From Candidatus Peregrinibacteria bacterium (GTDB taxonomy: Bacteria; Patescibacteriota; Gracilibacteria; Peribacterales; Peribacteraceae), in contig JACPMB010000003.1 in the NCBI GenBank assembly GCA_016186175.1, positions 8,508 to 72,507 on the forward strand: a DNA stretch of 64,000 bases, given 5' to 3'. This document shows, piece after piece, positions 15,375 to 62,271 of this stretch; the first letter of the stretch is position 1; each line of letters opens with the position of its first letter. The translations under genes were made by a program, and so were the position numbers. A model generated the notes under the pieces. It saw nothing but the letters and a program-made list of their open reading frames with translations. It was not told where the DNA came from and made no database searches.

Positions 15375-17636
15375 TCATCGCCTTGACGGCCCCCTTCTCG
15401 GTCCCCCAAATCCTCCACTCGGCCGTCCCCCGAACCCTCCGGATCGCGGAGGAAGCGGCGTCCAGCCTGCGGGTGGCGCCGTCATCTGCTTGAGCGACAT
15501 GCGCGTCTTGCCCTCGATCGGATCGTACTCGATGCATTTGGCCTCGACCTCCTGACCGAGTTTTAGAATGTCTTCAACCCGTTCGGTGCGTCCCCATTGC
15601 AGTTCCGAAATATGTATCATCGCATCTTTGCCCGGTAGGAATTCGACGATTGCGCCGGTTCCGTCAATGATCCTGACCACTTTGCCCTTGTAGACTTTTC
15701 CGACTTCCGGTTTCTCGACGATTCCCATGATCCAGGATTTGGCTTTTTCCATCGCCTCGCCATTGACTGACGTTACGAACACCAATCCGCTGTCCTCTAT
15801 GTCAATTTCGACGCCGAGTTCCTTGGTGATCTTTTGTATTGTCTCCCCGCCTTTGCCGATTACGAGCCTGATGTCATCCGGATTAATTCGAATCGTCTCG
15901 ATTCGCGGCGCGAACGGACTCATTTCTTTCCGCGGCTCTGTTATCGCCTGCAGCATGACTTTGAGCACTTCCATGCGCCCGGATTTTGCGCGCGCAAGCG
16001 CTTCCTCGAAGACAGCGTCTGGCAGGCCCTTGATTTTGATGTCCATCTGAATCGCCGTGACGCCTTTTTCCGTGCCGGTGACTTTGAAGTCCATATCCCC
16101 GCCGAAATCCTCCTCGTCCTGCAGATCGGTGAGGATGACGTACTTCCCTGGCGAGCCTGACGAACCATCTTCATCGGAGATCAATCCCAGAGCGATCGCG
16201 GAGACTGGGGTCGTGATTGGAACGCCCGCTGCCATGAGGGCCAGGGTGCATCCGCAAGTGGCCGCCATGGAACTGGAGCCGTTGCTTGAGAGAATCTCCG
16301 TTACGGCGCGTATCGTGTACGGATAATTTTCCTGCGACGGCAGCACCGGTTCCATGCCCCTTTGCGCAAGATTGCCGTGGCCAACTTCGCGATTCCCGAC
16401 AAAGAGGCGGTTGCTGGTTTCGCCGACGGAAAACGGCGGAAAGTTATAATGATGCATGAATCGGATCTCGTGCTCTCCTTCCATTCCCTCAACGATCTGC
16501 CTGTCTCCCGGGCCTCCGAGCGTGACAGTGGTTAAACCCTGCGTTTCGCCGCGCTCGAAGAGCGCCGAACCGTGAACGCGGTTCGGGAGGATATCAACCA
16601 TGGCGCTGAGCGGCCTGATCTGATCTGTCTTTCTGCCGCTCATGCGCACGCCTTCCTCCAGAACAAGTCTGCGCATTTCTCCTTTCACGATTTTGTCAAC
16701 GAAAGCCGGCCCGTGGTCATGAAGCTTCTGAAATTCTTCCAGTTGCTCATCGGTGCAATCCTTCGGTGTCGGAAACTTCTCTTTGAGCTTAATGACGGAC
16801 TCCTCCATGAGCCGCGCGAAGATCCCCCGGCGGACGTTCTTTGGCATGTGCGTCTTGATCGCCTTCGTGATCTCCGGGAGCGCCCAGTTCTTAAGGAATT
16901 TATACGCCCCATCATGCGTGAATATCGGATCAACTGCGAATTTCTCTTTACCCATCTCCTTTTGTATGTCGGCGAAAAATCCGGCGATTTTTTGCGCCCA
17001 CTTCCTGCCGAATTGTATGGCGCGCAGAATTTCCGCTTCCGGCGCCTGGTTGGCGCCGGCTTCTATCATAACCACCCGCTCCAGCGACGCCGTGACGAAC
17101 ATATCAAGATCGCTTTTCAGGCGCGCCTCGCGTGACGGATTCAAAACAAGCTCGCCGCCTATTAGTCCCACGCGAACCATGCCGATTGGCCCGTCGCACG
17201 GGCAGTCGCTCAGGGCAACGGCAAGATTTGCGGCGTTGCCCGAAACGATGTCGTGTTCGTGCTCGAAGTCGTAACTCAGCACGGTGCAGAAGACCTGGAT
17301 GTCGCGGCGGATATTCTTGTCAATCATCGGCCGCAATCCCCGGTCAATGACTCGGCCGAGCAGGATATAGTCGTCGCCCGGGCGTCCTTCGCGCTTGCGG
17401 AACCGCGATCCCGCGATCTTGCCTCCGGCGTAATACTTTTCCTGATAGACAACTTGCAACGGCAAAAAATCAACGCCTTCGCGCGCTTTGGCGCTGACTG
17501 TGCAGTTGCCGAGCGCGATGGTGTCTCCCAGCCGGCAGATAACCGACGCGTTCGCCTGGTTCGCAATCGCGCCCAGCTTGACGATGAGTGTCTGATTCCC
17601 GAGTTCGAGCGAGTATTCCTTTTGCGGAGATAACAT
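15375..17636 (-). CDS. pnp: Polyribonucleotide nucleotidyltransferase (PNPase)
   Basis: Two RNase PH domains (HGSALFERGETQ, SNGSSSMA, GDMDFKVTGT), KH and S1 domains, Gly/Arg-rich tail. Confidence 0.97.
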   Translation of the reverse strand: MLSPQKEYSLELGNQTLIVKLGAIANQANASVICRLGDTIALGNCTVSAKAREGVDFLPLQVVYQEKYYAGGKIAGSRFRKREGRPGDDYILLGRVIDRGLRPMIDKNIRRDIQVFCTVLSYDFEHEHDIVSGNAANLAVALSDCPCDGPIGMVRVGLIGGELVLNPSREARLKSDLDMFVTASLERVVMIEAGANQAPEAEILRAIQFGRKWAQKIAGFFADIQKEMGKEKFAVDPIFTHDGAYKFLKNWALPEITKAIKTHMPKNVRRGIFARLMEESVIKLKEKFPTPKDCTDEQLEEFQKLHDHGPAFVDKIVKGEMRRLVLEEGVRMSGRKTDQIRPLSAMVDILPNRVHGSALFERGETQGLTTVTLGGPGDRQIVEGMEGEHEIRFMHHYNFPPFSVGETSNRLFVGNREVGHGNLAQRGMEPVLPSQENYPYTIRAVTEILSSNGSSSMAATCGCTLALMAAGVPITTPVSAIALGLISDEDGSSGSPGKYVILTDLQDEEDFGGDMDFKVTGTEKGVTAIQMDIKIKGLPDAVFEEALARAKSGRMEVLKVMLQAITEPRKEMSPFAPRIETIRINPDDIRLVIGKGGETIQKITKELGVEIDIEDSGLVFVTSVNGEAMEKAKSWIMGIVEKPEVGKVYKGKVVRIIDGTGAIVEFLPGKDAMIHISELQWGRTERVEDILKLGQEVEAKCIEYDPIEGKTRMSLKQMTAPPAGWTPLPPRSGGFGGRPSGGFGGPRRGPSRR

Positions 17637-30966: not shown

Positions 30967-31103
30967 AGAAATGGGAGTAATGCCGATATTCGGATGAAAT
31001 TACCTGGGGCTGTTGCCCTGGAAGTGCGTAAAGACTAAAGATTTGAGCTTGGAAGTCAATGTACACGGCCTTTCGTTCACGGACGGAGCTATTATGTCAC
31101 CGT

Positions 31104-33284
31104 ATGGTTTCGACAGAGGAAGACAGGCTGTCCAATCTTCGCAAGCGAGTCGCCAGGGCGCCGCAGGATCCTGGCGTGTATAAATGGCTGGATGACAACG
31201 GACGCGTTCTGTACGTCGGAAAGGCGAAGAATTTGAGGAAGAGATTGAGCTCATACGTGCGATCGGCGCCACCACTAGGGCCGTGGAAGGAATCGTTCAT
31301 GCGGCAGATCGTCGATTTCGACGTGCTGGTCGCGACGTCCGAATTCGAAGCGCTGATTCTCGAAACGAATTTGATAAAGCAGCTGCGGCCCAAATACAAC
31401 GTCCTGATGAAGGACGACAAGAATCATATCTTCATCCGCGTCTCCGTACAGGATTCTTATCCGTCCGTCGCGACTGTCCGGCGATTCGAGCAGGACGGCG
31501 CAAGGTATTTCGGGCCGTACATGAACGGCGATGAAGTCAATCAGACGCTCGATCTGCTGCACGAAGCCGTCGGCTATCGCGCGTGCGCGCAGTCAATAGC
31601 AGCCATGAACAGGGGCGGGCGGGCGGTGCGTCCGTGCCTGGAATTCCAGATAGGCAGGTGCAACGGGCTGTGCGCCGGAAAAATCACGAAAGACGAATAC
31701 AGAAACCGGATTGATCAGATGGTTTCGTTTCTGAAGGGGCAAAAGGATTCAATCAAAAGCATCCTACTCGAGCGGATGCGCGCCGCAGCCGATGATCGCA
31801 AGTTCGAGCTTGCCGCGAAGCTGCGCAATTACATCGGCCTCATCGAAGGCGGAGCCGACGACAAACAGGTGGCCGCAGACGGCACCGGAGAAAATTCCGA
31901 CATTCTCGGCGTCGCAATATCAAGCAACCGCGCACACGTGACAATTCTGCACCGCCGCAACGGACGCTTGGTCGGCGAGTCGCATTTTGCGTTATCAGGC
32001 CATCCGGAATCCGCCGCATCGGTCCTTGAACAATTCATCCCGCAATACTACGACGACGGGCGCGAGATCCCGGAAGCAATAATCATTTCCGAAGCTCCGC
32101 CCGACGACGGCAAAGTGATTGAAATTCTTCTGAGGGAACGACGGAAAAAAGCGGCGCGGCTGATCGTTCCGGAGCGCGGAAAAAAATCAAGATTGCTGCA
32201 ACTCGCGGAACGAAACGCGCGCGAGCAAGCGCGCCAGATGGAACTCAAATGGGAAACGGAAGAACGCAATACCACAGGCGCGCTCGCGGAGCTTGCGGAG
32301 GCGCTCGCACTCCCAGCGCCGCCGCAGAGAATCGAAGGATATGACATCAGTCACCTGGGGGGGACGGAGACAGTCGGTTCTATGGTCGTCATAAAAGATG
32401 GCCGGGCGTCCAATGATCAGTACCGTTCATTCATCATCCGTACTATGCAGAGCGGCGAAGTGGATGACTGCAAGGCGATGAAAGAAGTGCTTACGAGACG
32501 ACTGCGGAGACTCACGGAGAATGTGCGCGGGGAAGAGAATAAATGGAATACGGAAGGAATCACGTTCGGAAAGGCCTTGAAGAAGGATCAGGCGGAGATC
32601 GAGCGGATCCACGCCGCGAACACAGACGATATGGAGAATTCCAACGTCCGTTGCGGCAACTGCATCGTTGCGCGTCACGATGGATCAATCGTCGGTTTCG
32701 GCCGGATATACAAGCATCCTAAGAGCATCATGGAGCTGGAATCCGTCTGGGTGGACGAACCGTTCCGCGGAGGAAAGCTAGGCCAATTAATCGCCCGAAA
32801 ACTCCTGCGCATGATCAAGAAAGGCAAGGTGTACTCCAAAGTGCAACCCGAATTGGAGCAATATTACGCGGATATTGGATTCCGATACATCATAACCACG
32901 CCAAAAGAACTCCTCCGTCCATCCGCGAAAAGAAAATGTCGAACGGCGAGGGTTGTGATGATGTGGGAGTCCAGCCGCAATAAAACGGACGCATCGCTCT
33001 CGTCGAAACCAGACCTTATAGTCGTTGACGGCGGCAAGGGACAGCTAAATGCCGCAGACGGCGTCGTGAAGTCATTCGGTCTCGACATTCCGGTGGTCGC
33101 TTTGGCCAAGCGCGAGGAGGAAATTTTCGCTCAGGGGCGATCAAGCAAGATCGCATGCCCCGATGAATCACCAGCGAAGTTCCTGTTGATGCGGTTGCGC
33201 GACGAGGCGCACCGCTTTGCAAACGCGCATCGCGTGAAGCGGACGATCAATGCAATCAAATCGCCGCATGGAAAAGCGAAATGA
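31104..33284 (+). CDS. uvrC: Excinuclease ABC subunit C with inserted GNAT-like domain
   Basis: PGVY..YVGKAKNLRKR, RIEGYDISH, PDLIVVDGGKGQ, LRDEAHRFA; insert contains VWVDEPFRGGKLGQ. Confidence 0.93.
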   Translation: MVSTEEDRLSNLRKRVARAPQDPGVYKWLDDNGRVLYVGKAKNLRKRLSSYVRSAPPLGPWKESFMRQIVDFDVLVATSEFEALILETNLIKQLRPKYNVLMKDDKNHIFIRVSVQDSYPSVATVRRFEQDGARYFGPYMNGDEVNQTLDLLHEAVGYRACAQSIAAMNRGGRAVRPCLEFQIGRCNGLCAGKITKDEYRNRIDQMVSFLKGQKDSIKSILLERMRAAADDRKFELAAKLRNYIGLIEGGADDKQVAADGTGENSDILGVAISSNRAHVTILHRRNGRLVGESHFALSGHPESAASVLEQFIPQYYDDGREIPEAIIISEAPPDDGKVIEILLRERRKKAARLIVPERGKKSRLLQLAERNAREQARQMELKWETEERNTTGALAELAEALALPAPPQRIEGYDISHLGGTETVGSMVVIKDGRASNDQYRSFIIRTMQSGEVDDCKAMKEVLTRRLRRLTENVRGEENKWNTEGITFGKALKKDQAEIERIHAANTDDMENSNVRCGNCIVARHDGSIVGFGRIYKHPKSIMELESVWVDEPFRGGKLGQLIARKLLRMIKKGKVYSKVQPELEQYYADIGFRYIITTPKELLRPSAKRKCRTARVVMMWESSRNKTDASLSSKPDLIVVDGGKGQLNAADGVVKSFGLDIPVVALAKREEEIFAQGRSSKIACPDESPAKFLLMRLRDEAHRFANAHRVKRTINAIKSPHGKAK

Positions 33285-51696: not shown

Positions 51697-52965
51697 ATGG
51701 CGTATCCGCAAATCCAAAACACCGCAAGTTTCACCAACCTCGGCATCGCGCCGGGCCTGCTGCAGATACTTGCCCGGATGAAATTCACGGCACCTACGCC
51801 GATTCAGCACCAGGCGATTCCCATAGCAGTGGAAGGCAAGGACGTGATCGGCATCGCGCAGACCGGCACAGGAAAGACGATGGCATTCGGCCTGCCGATG
51901 CTGCAGCGGCTTGCGCAATTCGGGGGACGGGGGCTTGTGATCCTTCCAACGCGGGAGCTCGCCTACCAGGTGGAAGAAGCGCTCGCGCCATTTGCAAAGG
52001 CTCTCAATATCCGCACTGCGGTCTTCGTTGGCGGCGCATCAATGAATTTGCAGCGTCAGATGCTCCGGCATAACCCCCGTATTCTCATCGCGACGCCGGG
52101 GCGGCTGAACGATCACCTGGAACAACGGACAGTGACGCTAAAGGAGGTCAATATCCTCGTGCTTGATGAGGCCGACCGCATGCTCGACATGGGATTCAAG
52201 CCGCAGATTGACCGAATCCTCGCGCACGTGCCGAAGAAACGGCAGACCATGCTCTTTTCGGCGACTATGCCGCGCGAGATCCTGCAATTGGCTACATCGC
52301 AGATGCAGACGCCGCTGCGGATCGAAGTCGCGCCCGCTGGAACGACCGCCGAAAAAGTGGAGCAGGAGATTTTCGTCGTCCGAAAAGAAGAGAAATTGCG
52401 GCTCCTGGAAAAGCTTCTGCAGGAATACACGGGCTCGGTGCTCGTGTTTTCTCGGACGAAGCACGGAGCGAAAAAGATGACGCGGGCGGTGCGCGCCATG
52501 GGGCACGCGTCGGCGGAAATCCACGCCAATCGCTCGCTTTCGCAGCGCCGCGAAGCGTTGGAGGGCTTCAAGACCGGACGCTACCGCGTGCTGATCGCAA
52601 CAGACATCGCCGCTCGGGGCATAGACGTGACGGGCATCGCGATTGTCATCAATTATGACCTGCCGGATGACCCGGGAGATTACGTCCATCGCATCGGGAG
52701 GACGGCGCGGGCCGGCCGCGAAGGACGCGCGATCTCGTTCGCCACTCCGGATCAGACGGGCGACATACGGAGCATCGAGCGGCTTACGCGCATGCCGATC
52801 CGCCGCACTCCCCTGCCTTCGCTGCCGCCGCCGCGGGCGGCTCTTCCTGAAGAACATCGCTTCGTCGGTGAGCGCCATACTCGGACATCGGATGCACACA
52901 ATCCGCGCGGGCATAAACAACACAGTGGATGGCGACGTGGAGGGAGACGATTCCGTGGAAGGTGA
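51697..52965 (+). CDS. rhlE: DEAD-box RNA helicase (RhlE-like)
   Basis: AQTGTGKT, PTRELA, DEAD, SAT, HRIGRTAR; RGG-like tail. Confidence 0.93.
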   Translation: MAYPQIQNTASFTNLGIAPGLLQILARMKFTAPTPIQHQAIPIAVEGKDVIGIAQTGTGKTMAFGLPMLQRLAQFGGRGLVILPTRELAYQVEEALAPFAKALNIRTAVFVGGASMNLQRQMLRHNPRILIATPGRLNDHLEQRTVTLKEVNILVLDEADRMLDMGFKPQIDRILAHVPKKRQTMLFSATMPREILQLATSQMQTPLRIEVAPAGTTAEKVEQEIFVVRKEEKLRLLEKLLQEYTGSVLVFSRTKHGAKKMTRAVRAMGHASAEIHANRSLSQRREALEGFKTGRYRVLIATDIAARGIDVTGIAIVINYDLPDDPGDYVHRIGRTARAGREGRAISFATPDQTGDIRSIERLTRMPIRRTPLPSLPPPRAALPEEHRFVGERHTRTSDAHNPRGHKQHSGWRRGGRRFRGR

Positions 52966-53053
52966 AGTGTGTGCTTCACAACGCGCAGAAAAAATCGGTC
53001 TTTTTGGCTTCCTTGAGGTAACAATCCGCCTTTTTTGCCGTTATAGTGCCTGC

Positions 53054-54823
53054 ATGCGCGCCTTTCTGACGCTGCTTTCGGCTGTATGGCGATATACGCG
53101 AGACCGGCGCGGCCGGCTACTGCTGTACGTTGCGATGTTCATCGGGGCGAATATCGTCCTGCTGCTGGAGCCGCTCGTGATCGGGCGACTGCTAAACACT
53201 ATCCAGCAGATACGGAATGTTCCCGATCCTATGGCGTCGCTCGGCATCCTGTTCGCGCTGCTCATCGGCATTCAGTTCTCCTTCTGGGCACTTCACGGCC
53301 CGGCGCGGGCGCTGGAGACCACAGGCGCGTTTCATGCGCGGATCGCCTTCGCCGACCACGTCTTCCGCACCGTCACATCCCTGCCGATGCAGTGGCACAA
53401 GGACCACCACTCGGGGCAGACCATCAACCGTATGCGCAAGTCGGCCTACGCGCTGAACGAATTCCTGGGAAACGGTTACCAGATAATCGAAATGATCGTC
53501 CGACTGATCGGGTCTGTGACCGCAATAGTGATTCTGCAGCCGATTGCGGCATTCATTGCCCTGAGCGTGACGGCCTTCGCGTTCCTCATCGTCTTCTTGT
53601 TCGATCGCGTCCTCCTGCGCCAGTACGAGGAAATCAATGAACGCGAGCATTTCACCGCCTCAGCGCTGCACGACTACGTGACGAACATCGCCACGGTGAT
53701 CACGCTGCGGTTGGAATCGTTGACGCGCAATGAACTCTGGAAGCGCATGACCGTATACTACCCGCTTTTCCGTAGGAACTCCATCGTCAACGAAACAAAG
53801 TGGTTCCTGACGACAATCGTCATCGCCGTGATGACCGTCACAGTACTCGCATGGTACGCGCTCACGACCATCCGCGGCGGCGGCGTTCTGCTGGCGGGCA
53901 CCGTGTACATGCTGTACGACTATCTGCAGAAGATCGGAAGCGTGTTCTTCATGTTCGCGTGGAAGTACAGCGCCACCGTGCAGCAGTACGCCGACATGTT
54001 GGCGTCGAAGGCGATCCTGGACGCCGTGCCGGCGGAAAGCGACCCAGCAGAACCGCTCCCACAGGGGTGGAGGAGCGTCACTATCCGCAATCTGCGGTTC
54101 TCTTACGAAGATACGGCGAAGCGCCGCCATCATCTGGACGGCATCTCCATGACGCTCGAGCGCGGAAAGAACATAGCCCTCGTAGGGGAGAGCGGCTCCG
54201 GCAAGAGCACGCTGATGAGCCTGCTCCGCGGACTTCACGTGACAGAGAGCGCGGACGTGTCATGCGACGGCCAGACCCTGCCGGAAGGACTGCGGCACCT
54301 GGCGCAGCACGTGACGCTCATCCCGCAGGAGCCGGAAATTTTCAGCAACACCATTGAGTACAACGTCAGCGTCGATACGCAGCAATCGGAAGATGAGCTG
54401 CTGCATGACATCGACCTCGCATGTTTCACGCCGGTGCTGGATCGCCTTCCGCACGGGCTGAAGACGGACATCGCCGAAAAGGGCGTAAACCTGAGCGGCG
54501 GCGAGAAGCAGCGGCTGGCACTCGCGCGGGGAATCTTCGCTGCAAAGGAGAGCGACATCATTCTTCTGGATGAACCAACGTCCTCCGTGGATTCGATGAA
54601 CGAACTGAAAATTCACCGTAATATCTTCGCGCACTTCGCCGACCGCTGCATCGTCGCCTCTATCCACCGGCTGCACCTGCTGCCGCTCTTCGATGAAGTC
54701 TGCGTGTTGGCGAATGGGAAATTGATCGAACGGGGAAAGCCGGCAGAATTGATGGAGCGGGACGGGCCGCTGGGGAGAATGTGGAAGCAGTACCTGCGTC
54801 AGCATCCCCGGTATGGAAAGTAA
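53054..54823 (+). CDS. ABC transporter fused permease/ATPase
   Basis: TM domain then GESGSGKS, LSGGEKQR, LLDEPTS. Confidence 0.92.
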   Translation: MRAFLTLLSAVWRYTRDRRGRLLLYVAMFIGANIVLLLEPLVIGRLLNTIQQIRNVPDPMASLGILFALLIGIQFSFWALHGPARALETTGAFHARIAFADHVFRTVTSLPMQWHKDHHSGQTINRMRKSAYALNEFLGNGYQIIEMIVRLIGSVTAIVILQPIAAFIALSVTAFAFLIVFLFDRVLLRQYEEINEREHFTASALHDYVTNIATVITLRLESLTRNELWKRMTVYYPLFRRNSIVNETKWFLTTIVIAVMTVTVLAWYALTTIRGGGVLLAGTVYMLYDYLQKIGSVFFMFAWKYSATVQQYADMLASKAILDAVPAESDPAEPLPQGWRSVTIRNLRFSYEDTAKRRHHLDGISMTLERGKNIALVGESGSGKSTLMSLLRGLHVTESADVSCDGQTLPEGLRHLAQHVTLIPQEPEIFSNTIEYNVSVDTQQSEDELLHDIDLACFTPVLDRLPHGLKTDIAEKGVNLSGGEKQRLALARGIFAAKESDIILLDEPTSSVDSMNELKIHRNIFAHFADRCIVASIHRLHLLPLFDEVCVLANGKLIERGKPAELMERDGPLGRMWKQYLRQHPRYGK

Positions 54824-54842: not shown

Positions 54843-55073
54843 AAACCCCCTCCCCCGGCCCCTCCCCCAACCTCGCATCGCTCGGTTGGGAGAGGGGTGA
54901 CTGCCATCTCCCCCTCTCCCCCGCAGGGGGGAGGGGGTCGGGGGGAGGGGGTTTCTGAGAATGGGGAGGGGCCGGGGGAGGGGGTTTCTGAGAATGGGGA
55001 GGGGCCGGGGGAGGGGGTTTCTGAGAATGGGGAGGGGCCTTCTGAGAATGGGGAGGGGCCGGGGGAGGGGGTT
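54843..55073 (+). repeat. C-rich/G-rich palindromic element followed by a 33-bp G-rich tandem repeat
   Basis: Unit GGGGGAGGGGGTTTCTGAGAATGGGGAGGGGCC; period 33 seen at 54951, 54984 and 55017, plus a partial copy. Confidence 0.9.
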
Positions 55074-55091
55074 CTACGCTAGAATCCCGCC

Positions 55092-56018
55092 ATGCTCGAA
55101 CTCCATCGCCTCCTCCTGGGCGACGCCGCGCGCAATCATGCATTCGCAAAAGCGTTGAATGGGGTCATCGTGCCGGGGCAGACGACAATCGCCGACATCG
55201 GCTCCGGGACGGGGTTTTTGAGTTTCCTCGCGGAAAAGTACGGAGCCAGAGAGTGTTTCCTGTACGAGCGGAATTCCGCGATGCTCGCGCTGAGCAGGAA
55301 GACCGCGCGGGAGAACGGCATGAAGCGATGCCGATTCAATGCGGGACACTCGACGGAAGTGGCGAACCCCCCGAAGGTGGACGTCATCGCGAGCGAGACA
55401 CTGGGCAATTGGGCGTACGAAGAAAACATCATCGAGACGATGAACGATGCGCGCAGATTCTTAAAGCCCGGTGGAATCATGATTCCGCAGGAGCTGCGCT
55501 GCTTCGTCGCACCGGTGACTTCACCGCGCTTGTACGATGAGCTCAACATCTGGGACCGCATCGGACACGGGTTGAAGTTCACGGCGGCCAGGGAAACGTG
55601 CATGAACAACATGTATGTGAAGGACATTGTTGCAAAAGACCTTCTGGGCAATGGGGAGCAGTGGGATGTTGTGGATTTCCGTAAGCATAACAGCTCCATC
55701 CGTAATAACGCCGTCGCATGGATCATGCCGTCTACAGCGACGATCTACGGTTTTGCATGCTGGTGGGAAGCATTGCTCGTAAAGGGCGTCTCAATCAGCA
55801 CGAGCTCCTTTGGGCCGCCGACTCACTGGAAGCAAATCTATCTCCCGGCCCTTGCCCCGATTACCGTCCGCAGATCGGAGACTGTCCGCCTGACAATTTC
55901 GTCTGATTCACGCCCCGCCGTGAAGATCAACGTGGCATGGAAGACAGAAATCCTTGATGCGAAGGGCAAAACGCGAACGCGGACGGCGCAGGATATGCGA
56001 ACTGGATATGTGGAGTAG
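55092..56018 (+). CDS. Eukaryote-type protein arginine methyltransferase (PRMT-like)
   Basis: HRLLLGDAARN, DIGSGTG, VDVIASETLGNWAYEE (double-E loop), FLKPGGIMIP, GFACWW, PTHWKQ. Confidence 0.85.
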   Translation: MLELHRLLLGDAARNHAFAKALNGVIVPGQTTIADIGSGTGFLSFLAEKYGARECFLYERNSAMLALSRKTARENGMKRCRFNAGHSTEVANPPKVDVIASETLGNWAYEENIIETMNDARRFLKPGGIMIPQELRCFVAPVTSPRLYDELNIWDRIGHGLKFTAARETCMNNMYVKDIVAKDLLGNGEQWDVVDFRKHNSSIRNNAVAWIMPSTATIYGFACWWEALLVKGVSISTSSFGPPTHWKQIYLPALAPITVRRSETVRLTISSDSRPAVKINVAWKTEILDAKGKTRTRTAQDMRTGYVE

Positions 56019-56028
56019 AATCCCGATT

Positions 56029-59228: not shown

Positions 59229-60650
59229 TTAACCGATCGTAGTGATGATTTTGAGTCTCTTTCCATCAACAGTATGTTCTTGTTCACGCAACCTTTCACC
59301 AGCATTGTAACGGCGGATAGCATCGGCAATTTCGCTGAATCCAAGGATCTGACCGTTCCTAACAGTAAATAGGCCAAAATCTACAGATCCGACTATCTGT
59401 AGACCGCCTACTGCCCGGGTGCATTGTTCCAAAGTAGGAGCGATCGGAGGAGACCAAAAACCCGGCGTGGAAATACCCAATATTGCTGGAGAAGGAGGAA
59501 CGTATTGCTGAACCTGAATTCTCATTGGCAATCCATCAACAAATATGCCATTCGTGCCGATCGCTATATTGACGCCATCAGCTTCGAATGAGACAGACTG
59601 TGCAATAAAGTTCTGGTTTGACGGAAGATCGCTGATCGCTTTGATGACCTGCTGCTCAACCGATACCTTGATTTTATCTTCCTTGTTCTTGGCCTGATTC
59701 TCAACATTGGTCTTGTTCTCGGCATTCTTTGCTTGATTCTCCACTTTCATTTTATCTTCGGTGTTTTTCGTCTGGTTCTCGATTTTTTTCAGTCCCGCTT
59801 CCCTGGCTTCAAGCGCCTTTAATCTGCCTTGAAGGAACTCCTTTCGCTGTTCCTGGCCTGGCATCGGATTAATCATTGTCAATTCATCCTGGATTGCCTT
59901 GCGGGCTCTTCCAATTGCGGCATCCACATCGTTCGTTCTGTTGCTGTCCAGTGCATCACTGATCAGTTTCGTTGTTTCATTCTGTTGCTTGCGTATTTTC
60001 TCTCGCTGTTCCGTGCTGCCGCCTCCGAACCAGCCGGACACGGTATCTTTCACACTCTTCCAGAGCCCGCCGATTGCCGTCCAGTTTTCCTGCAATTTTT
60101 GGAATCCGAGGAATCCCATGGTACCCGCTACGCCTGTCGCTAAAGTTTTCCCTATTACTCCAAGTTCGTTCCACATCCACTTGATTGCGAGAACCGCAGC
60201 GACTCCGGCGCCTGCCAAGATTCCAACACGGGCCGCAGGAGGCAAATCACGCGTGGCCGCGCTGAGTGTCCTGATCCCGACATCCAGCGAGCCCGCCGTG
60301 AACTGCAGCGCCCCGCGGACCGCGCCCGGAGCGTCCGGAGCGTAGTCGGGGAGTATGAATCTTTTATCCATGACTTCGCGCAAAGTCTTCAGTTCCGCGA
60401 CGATTTCTTTTCGCGTATCGTCCGACACGTTCGCAGCGGCTTCGATCAGGGAGATGCGCGTGCCGATGACTGCCTGCAGCCTCTCGAGTTTCCTCTGCTG
60501 TTCCGGAGTCGCGTTTGCCCCTGCGCTGAGATCTTCGCGCAATCGGCGGATTTGCTGCGCGCCGAGAGAGATTATTTGCTCGCGTGACGCGTTGTTATCA
60601 ACAAGAGTATCTATCGTGGGAAGAACGTCTATGGATAGCGTGGAGGACAT
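59229..60650 (-). CDS. Hypothetical protein with central Gly-rich TM hairpin, coiled coil and 13-aa repeats
   Basis: VGILAGAGVAAVLA...GVAGTMGFLG; three K/N-V/I-ENQ.KN.E.K units. Confidence 0.8.
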   Translation of the reverse strand: MSSTLSIDVLPTIDTLVDNNASREQIISLGAQQIRRLREDLSAGANATPEQQRKLERLQAVIGTRISLIEAAANVSDDTRKEIVAELKTLREVMDKRFILPDYAPDAPGAVRGALQFTAGSLDVGIRTLSAATRDLPPAARVGILAGAGVAAVLAIKWMWNELGVIGKTLATGVAGTMGFLGFQKLQENWTAIGGLWKSVKDTVSGWFGGGSTEQREKIRKQQNETTKLISDALDSNRTNDVDAAIGRARKAIQDELTMINPMPGQEQRKEFLQGRLKALEAREAGLKKIENQTKNTEDKMKVENQAKNAENKTNVENQAKNKEDKIKVSVEQQVIKAISDLPSNQNFIAQSVSFEADGVNIAIGTNGIFVDGLPMRIQVQQYVPPSPAILGISTPGFWSPPIAPTLEQCTRAVGGLQIVGSVDFGLFTVRNGQILGFSEIADAIRRYNAGERLREQEHTVDGKRLKIITTIG

Positions 60651-60675
60651 GGATGTGAATGTGTTAAGAAAATCG

Positions 60676-62271
60676 CTATGCGGAGAACGCGAGCGTCGTC
60701 GGATTCGTGAATGTGATTCTGTTCATGTTTTGATTCGCCGTCGCCGTGACCTGCTGCTGCAAGACGCTCAAACGCACTCCCTGATTCCTTCCGTTTGCGC
60801 GAATCTCGACGTCTCCGGCGTTCGCGGAAGCGGCCACGAGCGTCAGACTGGCGGCTCGCGTCGTGTTATTTGCGTCATAAAAAGTCCTGAACGGCGCGCT
60901 GTCGTCGCTCCCCGCCCGCATTTGCAGATTCCCGCCGTCTTTGCGAAATTGCATCCGGGTGCCGTTTATCGTGACAGTAAGCACCTGCGACTCCGTCACC
61001 GGCAGTTCAAAGTTCGGAGGATTGAAGATCAGAGTGTCGAACGTGCGACGCTCTGTGAGCGTAGTTGGCTGCGGGGAAAGCATGTCCTCATCCAGACGCC
61101 GCGGTAGCGGTGCGCCGCTCTGCAAATGCTTCTGTGCAGAGGCAATCGTTGGAGGGCCCTGTGTGAATCTTTGACCGTTCGCCTTGCTGTAACGGGCATT
61201 TGCTGCCCAAATATCGAATAGTTCTTCCCAGCGCGTCATCACACGGTCTTCCACTTGCAGTTCTTGCTCTGTAGGCGCAGGAAGTGGCGGTCGCGCTCTC
61301 AATGCTGCACGGGTCAATATCTTTCGATGATTTTCTACCGCCATTTTTCGATACATGTCCTTGCCAACTGCATAGAAATCGGAGCCCTCAGGGACGAGCG
61401 TGGATGTTGCAAGAAAATTGGCGATCTTCGCACGCAAAAAATCGAAGAGGAACGTGGCAATTTTTTCCGTCGTGAGTCCAATACCCAGTGCACGCTTCAT
61501 CCATGGCTGCAGGGCCTCACTCTTGAGGAGAGGTTCAATCAATGAGTTGCGAATGTGTTTTTCAAAGCTATCCGCATCAGGATTTTCCAATTGCTCTATA
61601 AACGTACGGGGGTCAGACACGACGCCGAGAATTTTCTGAACTTGCTCATGGAATGTGGGAGACTCGACTGCCTGCGCCAAAATCTCACGAAGTTGTTTCA
61701 CTATCCCAGGCCTGTCCAGCTCTCGTTCAAGATTGGTGATGAACTCCGGGTCAACAACCTGAAAATCCCGTATCGCCTCATCAATGGCTGCCAACGCCTG
61801 CCGTTGACGCTTCAGGCTCTCCAGCTTTTCCGTGCTTTCCTTAAGAACAGCGGCAGTCTTTACTTCAATCTGAAGCTTCGTAAGTTTAGCGCGGAGCTCT
61901 GCTATCCGTTCCCGTTGCTCGATAGTAAGCTTTCCTGTGCCAGCAACTTCCCGAGAGGCCGGAACCGACAGGAATTTGTTGATTGCTTCGGCGATGCGCG
62001 CACGCACCGCATCGGCGCTCAATCCGAAGGCGCCATTCACAGTGAACGTCTGCGGCATGCGATCCATCTGCGCCGCGTTAATCTGCGGAAAGCCCGGGAT
62101 TCTGTTCATCGCTTCTATAATTCCGGCGACCGCAGGATGCGTTGCGCGGAGCGTCGGCGGAACCGGAACTTCGGGAATCAGCGGCCCGTTACGGCCAGTT
62201 TCGATTTGGAAGCACAACCTTGGCTCCCGAAATGAGCAAGATGAACGGATATAGGTGAATGTGTGTTTCAT
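60676..62271 (-). CDS. Hypothetical protein
   Basis: 531-aa ORF co-oriented with its neighbours; helical middle and beta-rich C-terminus. Confidence 0.8.
   Translation of the reverse strand: MKHTFTYIRSSCSFREPRLCFQIETGRNGPLIPEVPVPPTLRATHPAVAGIIEAMNRIPGFPQINAAQMDRMPQTFTVNGAFGLSADAVRARIAEAINKFLSVPASREVAGTGKLTIEQRERIAELRAKLTKLQIEVKTAAVLKESTEKLESLKRQRQALAAIDEAIRDFQVVDPEFITNLERELDRPGIVKQLREILAQAVESPTFHEQVQKILGVVSDPRTFIEQLENPDADSFEKHIRNSLIEPLLKSEALQPWMKRALGIGLTTEKIATFLFDFLRAKIANFLATSTLVPEGSDFYAVGKDMYRKMAVENHRKILTRAALRARPPLPAPTEQELQVEDRVMTRWEELFDIWAANARYSKANGQRFTQGPPTIASAQKHLQSGAPLPRRLDEDMLSPQPTTLTERRTFDTLIFNPPNFELPVTESQVLTVTINGTRMQFRKDGGNLQMRAGSDDSAPFRTFYDANNTTRAASLTLVAASANAGDVEIRANGRNQGVRLSVLQQQVTATANQNMNRITFTNPTTLAFSA

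Follow-up and report, generated by a model that had tools for sequence, protein, structure and literature searches.

Arginine methylation by protein arginine methyltransferases (PRMTs) is usually regarded as a eukaryotic trait. Here we describe a gene, found in a 64,000-nucleotide stretch of contig JACPMB010000003.1 of a Candidatus Peregrinibacteria bacterium (the whole stretch is called the window below), which is predicted from its open reading frame (ORF), its Pfam and PDB matches and its homologues to encode a PRMT-type arginine (guanidino) N-methyltransferase dependent on S-adenosylmethionine (SAM). The ORF occupies positions 55092-56018 on the + strand, starts with ATG and encodes 308 amino acids (aa); an in-frame TAG at 55080-55082, three codons 5′ of the ATG, means that it cannot extend further 5′. 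It is preceded, in order, by genes for an RhlE-type helicase and an ABC exporter and by a 268-bp repeat-rich spacer, and is followed by genes for a DUF1003 protein and, on the other strand, ProRS; VIT1 is also among its neighbours in the window. An earlier note on this DNA, made from the letters alone, had taken the organism for one resembling the candidate phyla radiation (CPR), which agrees with the 70-93% identity of the neighbouring genes to Candidatus Peribacteria genes.

Motifs, domain matches and fold

All six signatures of a PRMT could be located in the protein, in the order that the earlier note had given. The first core helix (HRLLLGDAARN, residues 5-15, 55104-55136, with D11 and R14) aligns to the corresponding helix of PRMT6 and CARM1. 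It is followed by motif I (DIGSGTG, residues 35-41, 55194-55214), the SAM-binding glycine loop, recognised by its conservation and by the Pfam models Methyltransf_25 and Methyltransf_31, and by the double-E loop (SETLGNWAYEE, residues 101-111, 55392-55424), in which E102 and E111 are the predicted catalytic residues. These two glutamates are 9 residues apart, as had been claimed, and both align to loop glutamates of PRMT6 and CARM1. Beyond FLKPGG (residues 123-128) lies the region assigned to the PRMT beta-barrel (residues 138-293, 55503-55970) from PF22528, PF17286 and the PDB alignments, which includes GFACWW (residues 220-225) and the THW loop (residues 244-246, 55821-55829), the latter aligned to the THW of PRMT6 and CARM1; all these elements are read on the + strand. 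Within the barrel region, a segment at about residues 143-175 aligns with the dimerisation arm of CARM1 and PRMT6 and is about five residues shorter.

The core of the protein matches the Pfam models Methyltransf_31 (4.8e-13) and Methyltransf_25 (4.1e-10), and two PRMT models exceed their cut-offs, PRMT_C (PF22528; residues 138-271) with 35.0 bits, the cut-off being 27, and PRMT5_C (PF17286) with 33.2 bits for a cut-off of 30.3; no NCBIfam model reached its cut-off with this protein. As a single query, the protein matched 77 distinct PDB chains at E ≤ 0.01 (phmmer), the best of them PRMT6 (E 7.4e-24, 88 bits, residues 4-293), with near full-length matches to PRMT6, PRMT8, CARM1 and PRMT1. A profile built from 28 family members reached E 1.1e-35 with CARM1 over positions 4-291, and 59 of its best 60 PDB chains are named arginine methyltransferases, the exception being 8rbk_A ('MGC151858 protein'). 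Type I enzymes ranked best against this profile (1e-35 to 1e-28), followed by PRMT9 and PRMT7 (PRMT7 7.5e-26) and then by PRMT5 (1.8e-20). The ESM Atlas holds an identical protein, for which the Atlas's own model has a pTM of 0.91, and its structural neighbours there are bacterial clusters at TM 0.86-0.97, with PRMT_C listed in seven of ten rows. Judged from sequence, the combination of motif set and database matches lies far beyond chance; the assignment of the ORF to the PRMT-type enzymes appears well supported, and the PRMT beta-barrel is established at the level of sequence and profile.

The predicted layout, a Rossmann domain followed by a beta-barrel, is that of the eukaryotic type I PRMTs (PRMT6, CARM1/PRMT4, PRMT8, PRMT1, PRMT2 and PRMT3), with which the window protein also has in common motif I and the acidic residue after it, the 9-residue double-E spacing, the GF..WW strand and the THW loop, in a near full-length alignment at about 24-28% identity. 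It differs from them in its bacterial host, in having no accessory domains, in a C-terminal end of its own (D301, G305) and in its N-terminus, which starts four residues before the conserved His (H5) of the first core helix. The same start position is found in 25 of 28 aligned homologues, the other three adding 1-5 residues. In eukaryotic PRMTs (PRMT1/CARM1) a further N-terminal helix with a conserved aromatic motif closes over SAM, and with so short a start this helix must be missing from the window protein. What had been called a 'complete eukaryote-type' PRMT is therefore PRMT-type by motifs, Pfam and PDB matches, but it lacks the N-terminal helix and has bacteria, not eukaryotes, as its nearest relatives.

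Conservation and selection

Residue conservation was scored in 80 aligned sequences, comprising the window copy and 79 loci (one locus, L015, was excluded because its translation, taken from the start of the match, contained X or fell short of 270 residues). Twelve positions are invariant in all 80, namely R14, D35, G37, G39, T40, G41, E102, E110, E111, T244, H245 and W246, and D11 and E59 are each kept in 79. Beyond the region that aligns to eukaryotic enzymes the family has a C-terminal motif, with D301 in 75 and G305 in 78 of the 80 sequences and a basic residue at 303 or 304; folding back of this motif (residues 299-305) onto the active site is one possibility.

The family is under purifying selection. 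Nei-Gojobori dN/dS ranges from 0.027 to 0.271 in 13 close pairs drawn from Peribacteria, Nevskiaceae and Planctomycetota (one further pair was saturated), from which we conclude that the gene is functional. Its GC content at third codon positions (GC3) is 0.722, compared with 0.677 ± 0.062 across 26 other genes of the window; from this neighbour-like composition, together with the bacterial nearest relatives, we conclude that the gene is not a recent eukaryotic import.

The usual database name of such proteins derives from the ribosomal protein L11 methyltransferase PrmA, whose class I SAM-binding core the window protein has in common. Among the homologues, three named close ones are labelled '50S ribosomal protein L11 methyltransferase', and the Pfam PrmA model gives 28 bits against a cut-off of 22, as would be expected if the protein were PrmA itself; another lysine or N-terminal methyltransferase, or an inactive relic, would be variants of this explanation. 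The Pfam match, however, is limited to the common SAM-binding core, where residues 21-131 meet positions 154-257 of a 296-position profile, and the NCBIfam PrmA equivalogs fall far under their cut-offs (NF001785 27.7 bits against 188, NF001790 22.4 against 269, TIGR00406 17.8 against 183.15). PrmA methylates lysines and the N-terminus, not arginine, whereas the arginine-specific double-E and THW motifs are invariant in the family, and the low dN/dS speaks against a relic. Trimethylation of bL11 lysines by PrmA is described in passages of a preprint (bioRxiv 10.1101/2023.06.29.546327). We consider this whole group of explanations very improbable, and the label 'L11 methyltransferase' is wrong for the family, whether the substrate is protein or free arginine. 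Some database records already name the family PRMT1-like ('protein arginine N-methyltransferase 1' seven times, six from JGI and one from NCBI), and the remaining names are generic.

Distribution and phylogeny

A word-indexed protein search yielded 765 homologues at a threshold of E ≤ 0.001 among 2240 candidates, the best 120 of which are 284-340 aa long and 48-100% identical to the window protein. A scan of one genome per species found no relative with the single protein as query; with the alignment as query it found relatives in at least 197 species genomes, and the window copy plus 79 of the best 80 of these make up the rows of our tree. The 79 loci belong to Peregrinibacteriota (46), Gracilibacteria (2), Pseudomonadota (23) and Planctomycetota (4), and four are unassigned (three Patescibacteria group and one 'uncultured bacterium'). 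Carriers among the Pseudomonadota are mostly Nevskiaceae (Gammaproteobacteria); cultured carriers include Solimonas sp. SE-A11, Stagnimonas aquatica THS-13 and Stenotrophobium rhamnosiphilum GT1R17, and the complete genome of the gamma proteobacterium strain HdN1 also encodes a family member. A phage search gave no match to the protein and a plasmid search gave distant relatives only. Longer fused forms of the family were sought and none was found, and a DNA-level search of 5,426 Escherichia coli genomes with the gene returned nothing, both of which are weak evidence.

A phylogeny of bacterial homologues had been proposed in the earlier note. In a quick tree the window copy joins four Peribacteria loci (support 99) on an end branch of 0.63, long by comparison with the 0.25-0.43 of its four nearest loci. 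Most of the Pseudomonadota rows (20 of 23, Nevskiaceae and allies) form one clade (support 100) and the Planctomycetota form another (support 98); both lie inside the bacterial 80-row clade (support 97), the backbone of which is unresolved. An approximately unbiased (AU) test did not reject a single clade of the 53 CPR rows (p-AU 0.566), although the free quick tree nests other phyla among them, so that transfer between phyla may have run in either direction.

By wider searches, the window gene is one member of a large, mostly bacterial radiation of PRMT-like proteins. An exhaustive search of representatives gave 6983 matches at E ≤ 0.001, 3305 at E ≤ 1e-10 and 215 at E ≤ 1e-30. The best 150 of these reach 130-332 bits, compared with 88 for the highest-scoring eukaryotic PRMT of known structure, and two that were tested, with best PDB E-values of 1e-28 and 1e-47, are not orthologues of any solved eukaryotic PRMT. 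The other bacterial PRMT-like families, which go by names such as 'L11 methyltransferase family protein' and 'class I SAM-dependent methyltransferase', have the same fold (the Atlas TM values given above) and are 30-35% identical to the window clade; their clusters hold 64-143 members, with PRMT_C in 59-92% of members where listed, and we found none that has been characterised. Of the best 150 representatives 116 are full-length, and most of these have the short N-terminus. A loop glutamate or the histidine of THW has been lost from 10-20% of the bacterial representatives, whereas the window clade is intact in this respect. Four distant representatives, P0253, P0178, P0256 and P0205, are fused to PqqD, NUDIX, GreA/Rnk and TPR domains, a hint that other clades of bacteria may have substrates linked to peptides or to transcription.

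Genomic context

The PRMT gene is syntenic in close Peribacteria relatives, and across the 80 loci its gene order is common to these close relatives only. Of the 80 loci, 5 have the helicase nearby (two of these on the opposite strand), 8 have ProRS and 4 have DUF1003, which lies just 3′ of the PRMT gene in three loci and far upstream on the other strand in the fourth. We rejected a conserved PRMT-helicase operon on the helicase count. In Gammaproteobacteria, the PRMT gene is immediately preceded by a divergently transcribed gene for HrpB, a DEAH-box RNA helicase (PF08482), in 17 of 23 loci (L044, L046, L051, L054, L057, L058, L061-L063, L065, L069, L070, L072, L074 and L076-L078). This adjacency, a second RNA helicase neighbour in another phylum, is a lineage-level synteny and may be plain family-level synteny. 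In Planctomycetota, HdN1 and other loci the neighbours are unrelated; the neighbours seen in the other inspected loci include HrpB, hydrolases, an M23 peptidase, a ligase and urocanase, and no set of biosynthetic genes recurs among them. The examined loci offer no conserved operon from which a function could be read.

Two further associations were considered and set aside. In 12 of the 80 loci, from two phyla, the PRMT gene has an alpha/beta hydrolase gene nearby, which in 7 is directly 3′ of it (the 12 include L016, L037, L067, L072, L074, L075, L079 and five more). A co-transferred PRMT-hydrolase pair was rejected because identity between the hydrolases of Gammaproteobacteria and those of CPR is only 23%, and the adjacency is for the same reason probably a coincidence. 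A defence system was likewise rejected, PADLOC having given a generic match to the methyltransferase core (mad2, residues 27-141) and generic ABC and helicase matches.

Immediately 3′ of the PRMT gene, a gene for a DUF1003 membrane protein (PF06210; 56029-56547, + strand) starts at ATG 56029, 10 bases beyond the PRMT stop, and co-transcription of the two is possible. The decamer TAGAATCCCG occurs exactly at 55080-55089 and 56016-56025, its only two copies in the 64 kb; both copies open with a stop codon and end 2-3 bases 5′ of an ATG, that of the PRMT gene and that of DUF1003 respectively. It might be a -10-like signal, a re-initiation signal or a small duplication.

On the 5′ side, the 268-bp spacer contains a G-rich tandem repeat (54843-55073) of about 3.3 copies of a 33-bp unit plus a perfect inverted copy of 24-25 nt just 3′ of the ABC transporter stop. 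The spacer RNA folds with z = -3.4, its repeat is absent from all 84 fetched loci and an Rfam search of it gave no match; the repeat could be a terminator or a G-quadruplex-prone element. With its first start codon, the ABC exporter ORF (52643-54823) would share about 320 bases with the helicase gene; its start is likely ATG 53054.

Elsewhere in the window, a UvrC homologue (31059-33284, 741 aa) has a GNAT acetyltransferase domain (residues 531-609) besides its GIY-YIG and UvrC RNase H-like domains, and two adjacent large ORFs on the - strand (59229-62271), of 473 and 531 aa, are without a match in Pfam; Lys/Asn/Glu-rich repeats are present in the first.

Small-molecule guanidino methyltransferases

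The PRMT-type enzyme might act not on proteins but on free arginine, another small guanidino compound or a peptide, as happens in bacterial natural-product pathways. SznE/StzE is described in passages of PMC11705231 as an arginine-guanidino methyltransferase that makes N-methyl-L-arginine, and BlsL, in passages of PMC5572114, as a guanidine N-methyltransferase with low similarity, according to its authors, to GAMT and PRMT. Both carry out SAM-dependent guanidino N-methylation of the kind proposed for the window protein. The same chemistry is attributed to the product of a Pantoea dispersa plasmid gene (NZ_CP082345.1, labelled 'L11 methyltransferase'), which is 24% identical to the window protein over 90% of the query, keeps both loop glutamates and has SHW for THW. 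It belongs to a compact gene set (L084 4247-9465), where it is placed between genes for a redox enzyme that contains iron (PF14518), a Rieske protein, a transporter of the MFS type and an enzyme of the ATP-grasp type; the set looks like an uncharacterised pathway starting from methylated arginine. A non-ribosomal peptide synthetase (NRPS) on plasmid pNsp_c of Nostoc sp. ATCC 53789 (L083 5019-10850) has a PRMT5-like methyltransferase domain at residues 990-1122, placed after the adenylation domain and before the carrier domain, and PqqD, to which one of the distant representatives above is fused, is a peptide-recognition domain.

Small-molecule guanidino methyltransferases, however, lie in biosynthetic clusters, and the window gene does not: its neighbours (helicase, ABC transporter, DUF1003, ProRS) are not biosynthetic, nor are those at the other inspected loci. 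The window protein is also no closer to the Pantoea gene product (71 bits) than to PRMT6 (88 bits). Purifying selection keeps the family in Peribacteria, whose genomes are small and have few biosynthetic pathways. We therefore regard a small-molecule substrate as unlikely, if worth keeping in view.

Gly/Arg-rich tails on two RNA-decay proteins

Two proteins encoded in the window stand out as candidate substrates, and both had been pointed to in the earlier note. The RhlE-type DEAD-box RNA helicase (51697-52965, + strand; Pfam DEAD and Helicase_C), encoded two genes upstream of the PRMT gene, matches E. coli RhlE at 47% identity (E 4e-109) and ends in ...SGWRRGGRRFRGR, with Arg/Gly-rich last 13 residues (52924-52962), which bears out the tail described for it. 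PNPase (15375-17636, - strand, 753 aa; Pfam RNase_PH, KH and S1; start set by identity to a database protein) ends in ...PPRSGGFGGRPSGGFGGPRRGPSRR and does have the Gly/Arg-rich tail ascribed to it, 38 residues long (15378-15491) and located after the S1 domain. Of 41 window proteins scored, these two alone have an R+G fraction of at least 0.40 in their last 40 residues.

These tails recur in relatives. The helicase orthologues of all five related loci have RGG-rich tails that exceed the tail of the window helicase in length, with R+G of 0.44-0.62 over their final 45 residues. For PNPase we kept the 115 of the 120 best homologues that were at least 700 aa long, all of them Peribacteria homologues; R+G is at least 0.25 in the tails of all 115 and at least 0.35 in 99, whereas the E. 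coli PNPase tail, at 0.125, is not Gly/Arg-rich. Five contigs besides the window's seem to carry both a PRMT gene and a tailed PNPase. Among 794 ORFs in the 80 loci, the recurrent Gly/Arg-dense proteins are the five helicases only, two further matches being single ORFs, and an ESM Atlas search with the PNPase tail alone was uninformative, giving unnamed clusters with scores up to 0.89. RGG/GGF repeats are preferred targets of the eukaryotic type I PRMTs, and the PNPase and helicase tails resemble such repeats. Methylation of RNA-decay proteins by the PRMT-type enzyme, as the earlier note had suggested, would thus be a reasonable inference from these sequences.

Proposed function

We favour, with a probability of roughly 0.6, the interpretation that the ORF encodes an active cytoplasmic arginine methyltransferase of the PRMT fold whose substrates would be the organism's own proteins, with the tails of PNPase and the RhlE-type helicase as leading candidates. 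The enzyme would be a minimal bacterial PRMT of about 308 aa, made up of a Rossmann SAM-binding domain and a PRMT beta-barrel, which moves methyl groups from SAM onto the terminal guanidino nitrogens of arginine. By analogy with the eukaryotic type I enzymes, SAM would be bound under motif I and E59, and the guanidinium of the substrate would be gripped and deprotonated between E102 and E111. A D11-H245 pair, joining the first helix to the THW loop, may shape the pocket; we assume this Asp-His pairing from PRMT1 structures. The product would be mono- and possibly asymmetric dimethyl-arginine, and methylation of the Gly/Arg-rich C-terminal tails may tune RNA binding or assembly. Activity, product type, dimerisation, a preference for protein over free arginine and the identity of the substrates are what we infer from these comparisons. 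A protein substrate is favoured because the gene has no biosynthetic neighbours, because it is retained in small CPR genomes and because the tails are conserved across the lineage.

A cytoplasmic location is suggested by the absence of any hydrophobic segment (the maximum 19-residue Kyte-Doolittle mean is 1.11). The earlier note had also raised a host-directed enzyme, secreted or injected so as to methylate proteins of a host cell, an idea that draws on the otherwise eukaryotic character of the enzyme type and on the attachment of many CPR bacteria to other cells, as is generally thought. The protein, however, has no signal peptide or membrane segment, its first residues are already part of the conserved catalytic helix, no secretion genes were seen near the PRMT gene in the window, and the family is carried by free-living cultured Nevskiaceae and by the gamma proteobacterium HdN1. 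We accordingly discount this idea almost entirely.

Several observations weigh against the interpretation that we favour. Some concern the enzyme itself. The N-terminal helix before the first core helix is absent. Positions 8 and 113, which we take to correspond to the pair of methionines that govern the type of product made by PRMT1, are Leu/Ile/Met and Ile/Leu respectively, which makes the product type uncertain. The gene is the least conserved of its syntenic block, with 57-61% identity (tblastn, L001-L004), whereas in L002 and L003 the helicase reaches 89-93% and ProRS 81-83%; in L001 and L002 the figures are 61% for the PRMT gene and 83-93% for helicase and ProRS taken together. The Pantoea relative (24% identity) keeps the double-E loop, with SHW for THW, in a cluster of small-molecule type, so that the motifs suggest guanidino methylation and are no proof of a protein substrate. 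Others concern the proposed targets. E. coli RhlE also has an RGG-type tail, in a species not known to encode a PRMT. The helicase lies near the PRMT gene in just 5 of 80 loci, twice on the other strand and never outside close relatives. No Gly/Arg-rich protein was found beside the PRMT gene in the Gammaproteobacteria and Planctomycetota loci.

The points on the proposed targets would fit a true protein arginine methyltransferase with other substrates, for example ribosomal or translation proteins, the tails then being unmethylated RNA-binding extensions. Proteomic surveys likewise find that proteins with methylated arginine or lysine belong mainly to translation and central metabolism, as stated in passages of bioRxiv 10.1101/2023.06.29.546327. 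Set against this are the conservation of a Gly/Arg-rich PNPase tail in every Peribacteria homologue surveyed, with none on E. coli PNPase, and the resemblance of the tails to the repeats preferred by eukaryotic type I PRMTs. We hold other protein substrates to be rather unlikely, though somewhat less so than a small-molecule substrate.

More tentatively still, the methylation of PNPase and RhlE tails may be viewed on the scale of the clade. In Peribacteria and, by ancestry or transfer, in Nevskiaceae and some Planctomycetota, a minimal PRMT might mark these tails in an RGG-methylation system like that of eukaryotes and so tune RNA binding or assembly, and the fold might have first diversified in bacteria, not in eukaryotes. 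We offer this broader scenario as a doubtful one.

Significance

Our full-text literature search found no characterised bacterial or CPR PRMT, though it left subscription journals largely uncovered and prior work may exist. A term search of the main text of a preprint on CPR methyltransferases gave no mention of arginine or PRMT. Methyl-arginine has been reported in bacterial proteins, and no writer is named in the passages concerned (PMC8466066; bioRxiv 10.1101/2023.06.29.546327). A compact bacterial PRMT clade with intact catalytic residues and under purifying selection, spanning both streamlined CPR genomes and cultured Nevskiaceae, would offer a direct way to a bacterial methyl-arginine writer, and the lineage-wide Gly/Arg-rich tails of PNPase and RhlE provide concrete candidate peptides. 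If free arginine should prove to be the substrate, the annotation of many proteins in the clade and its relatives would be corrected. If the PNPase and RhlE tails are indeed methylated, bacterial RNA decay would gain a level of regulation of which the only examples to date are RNA-binding proteins of eukaryotes.

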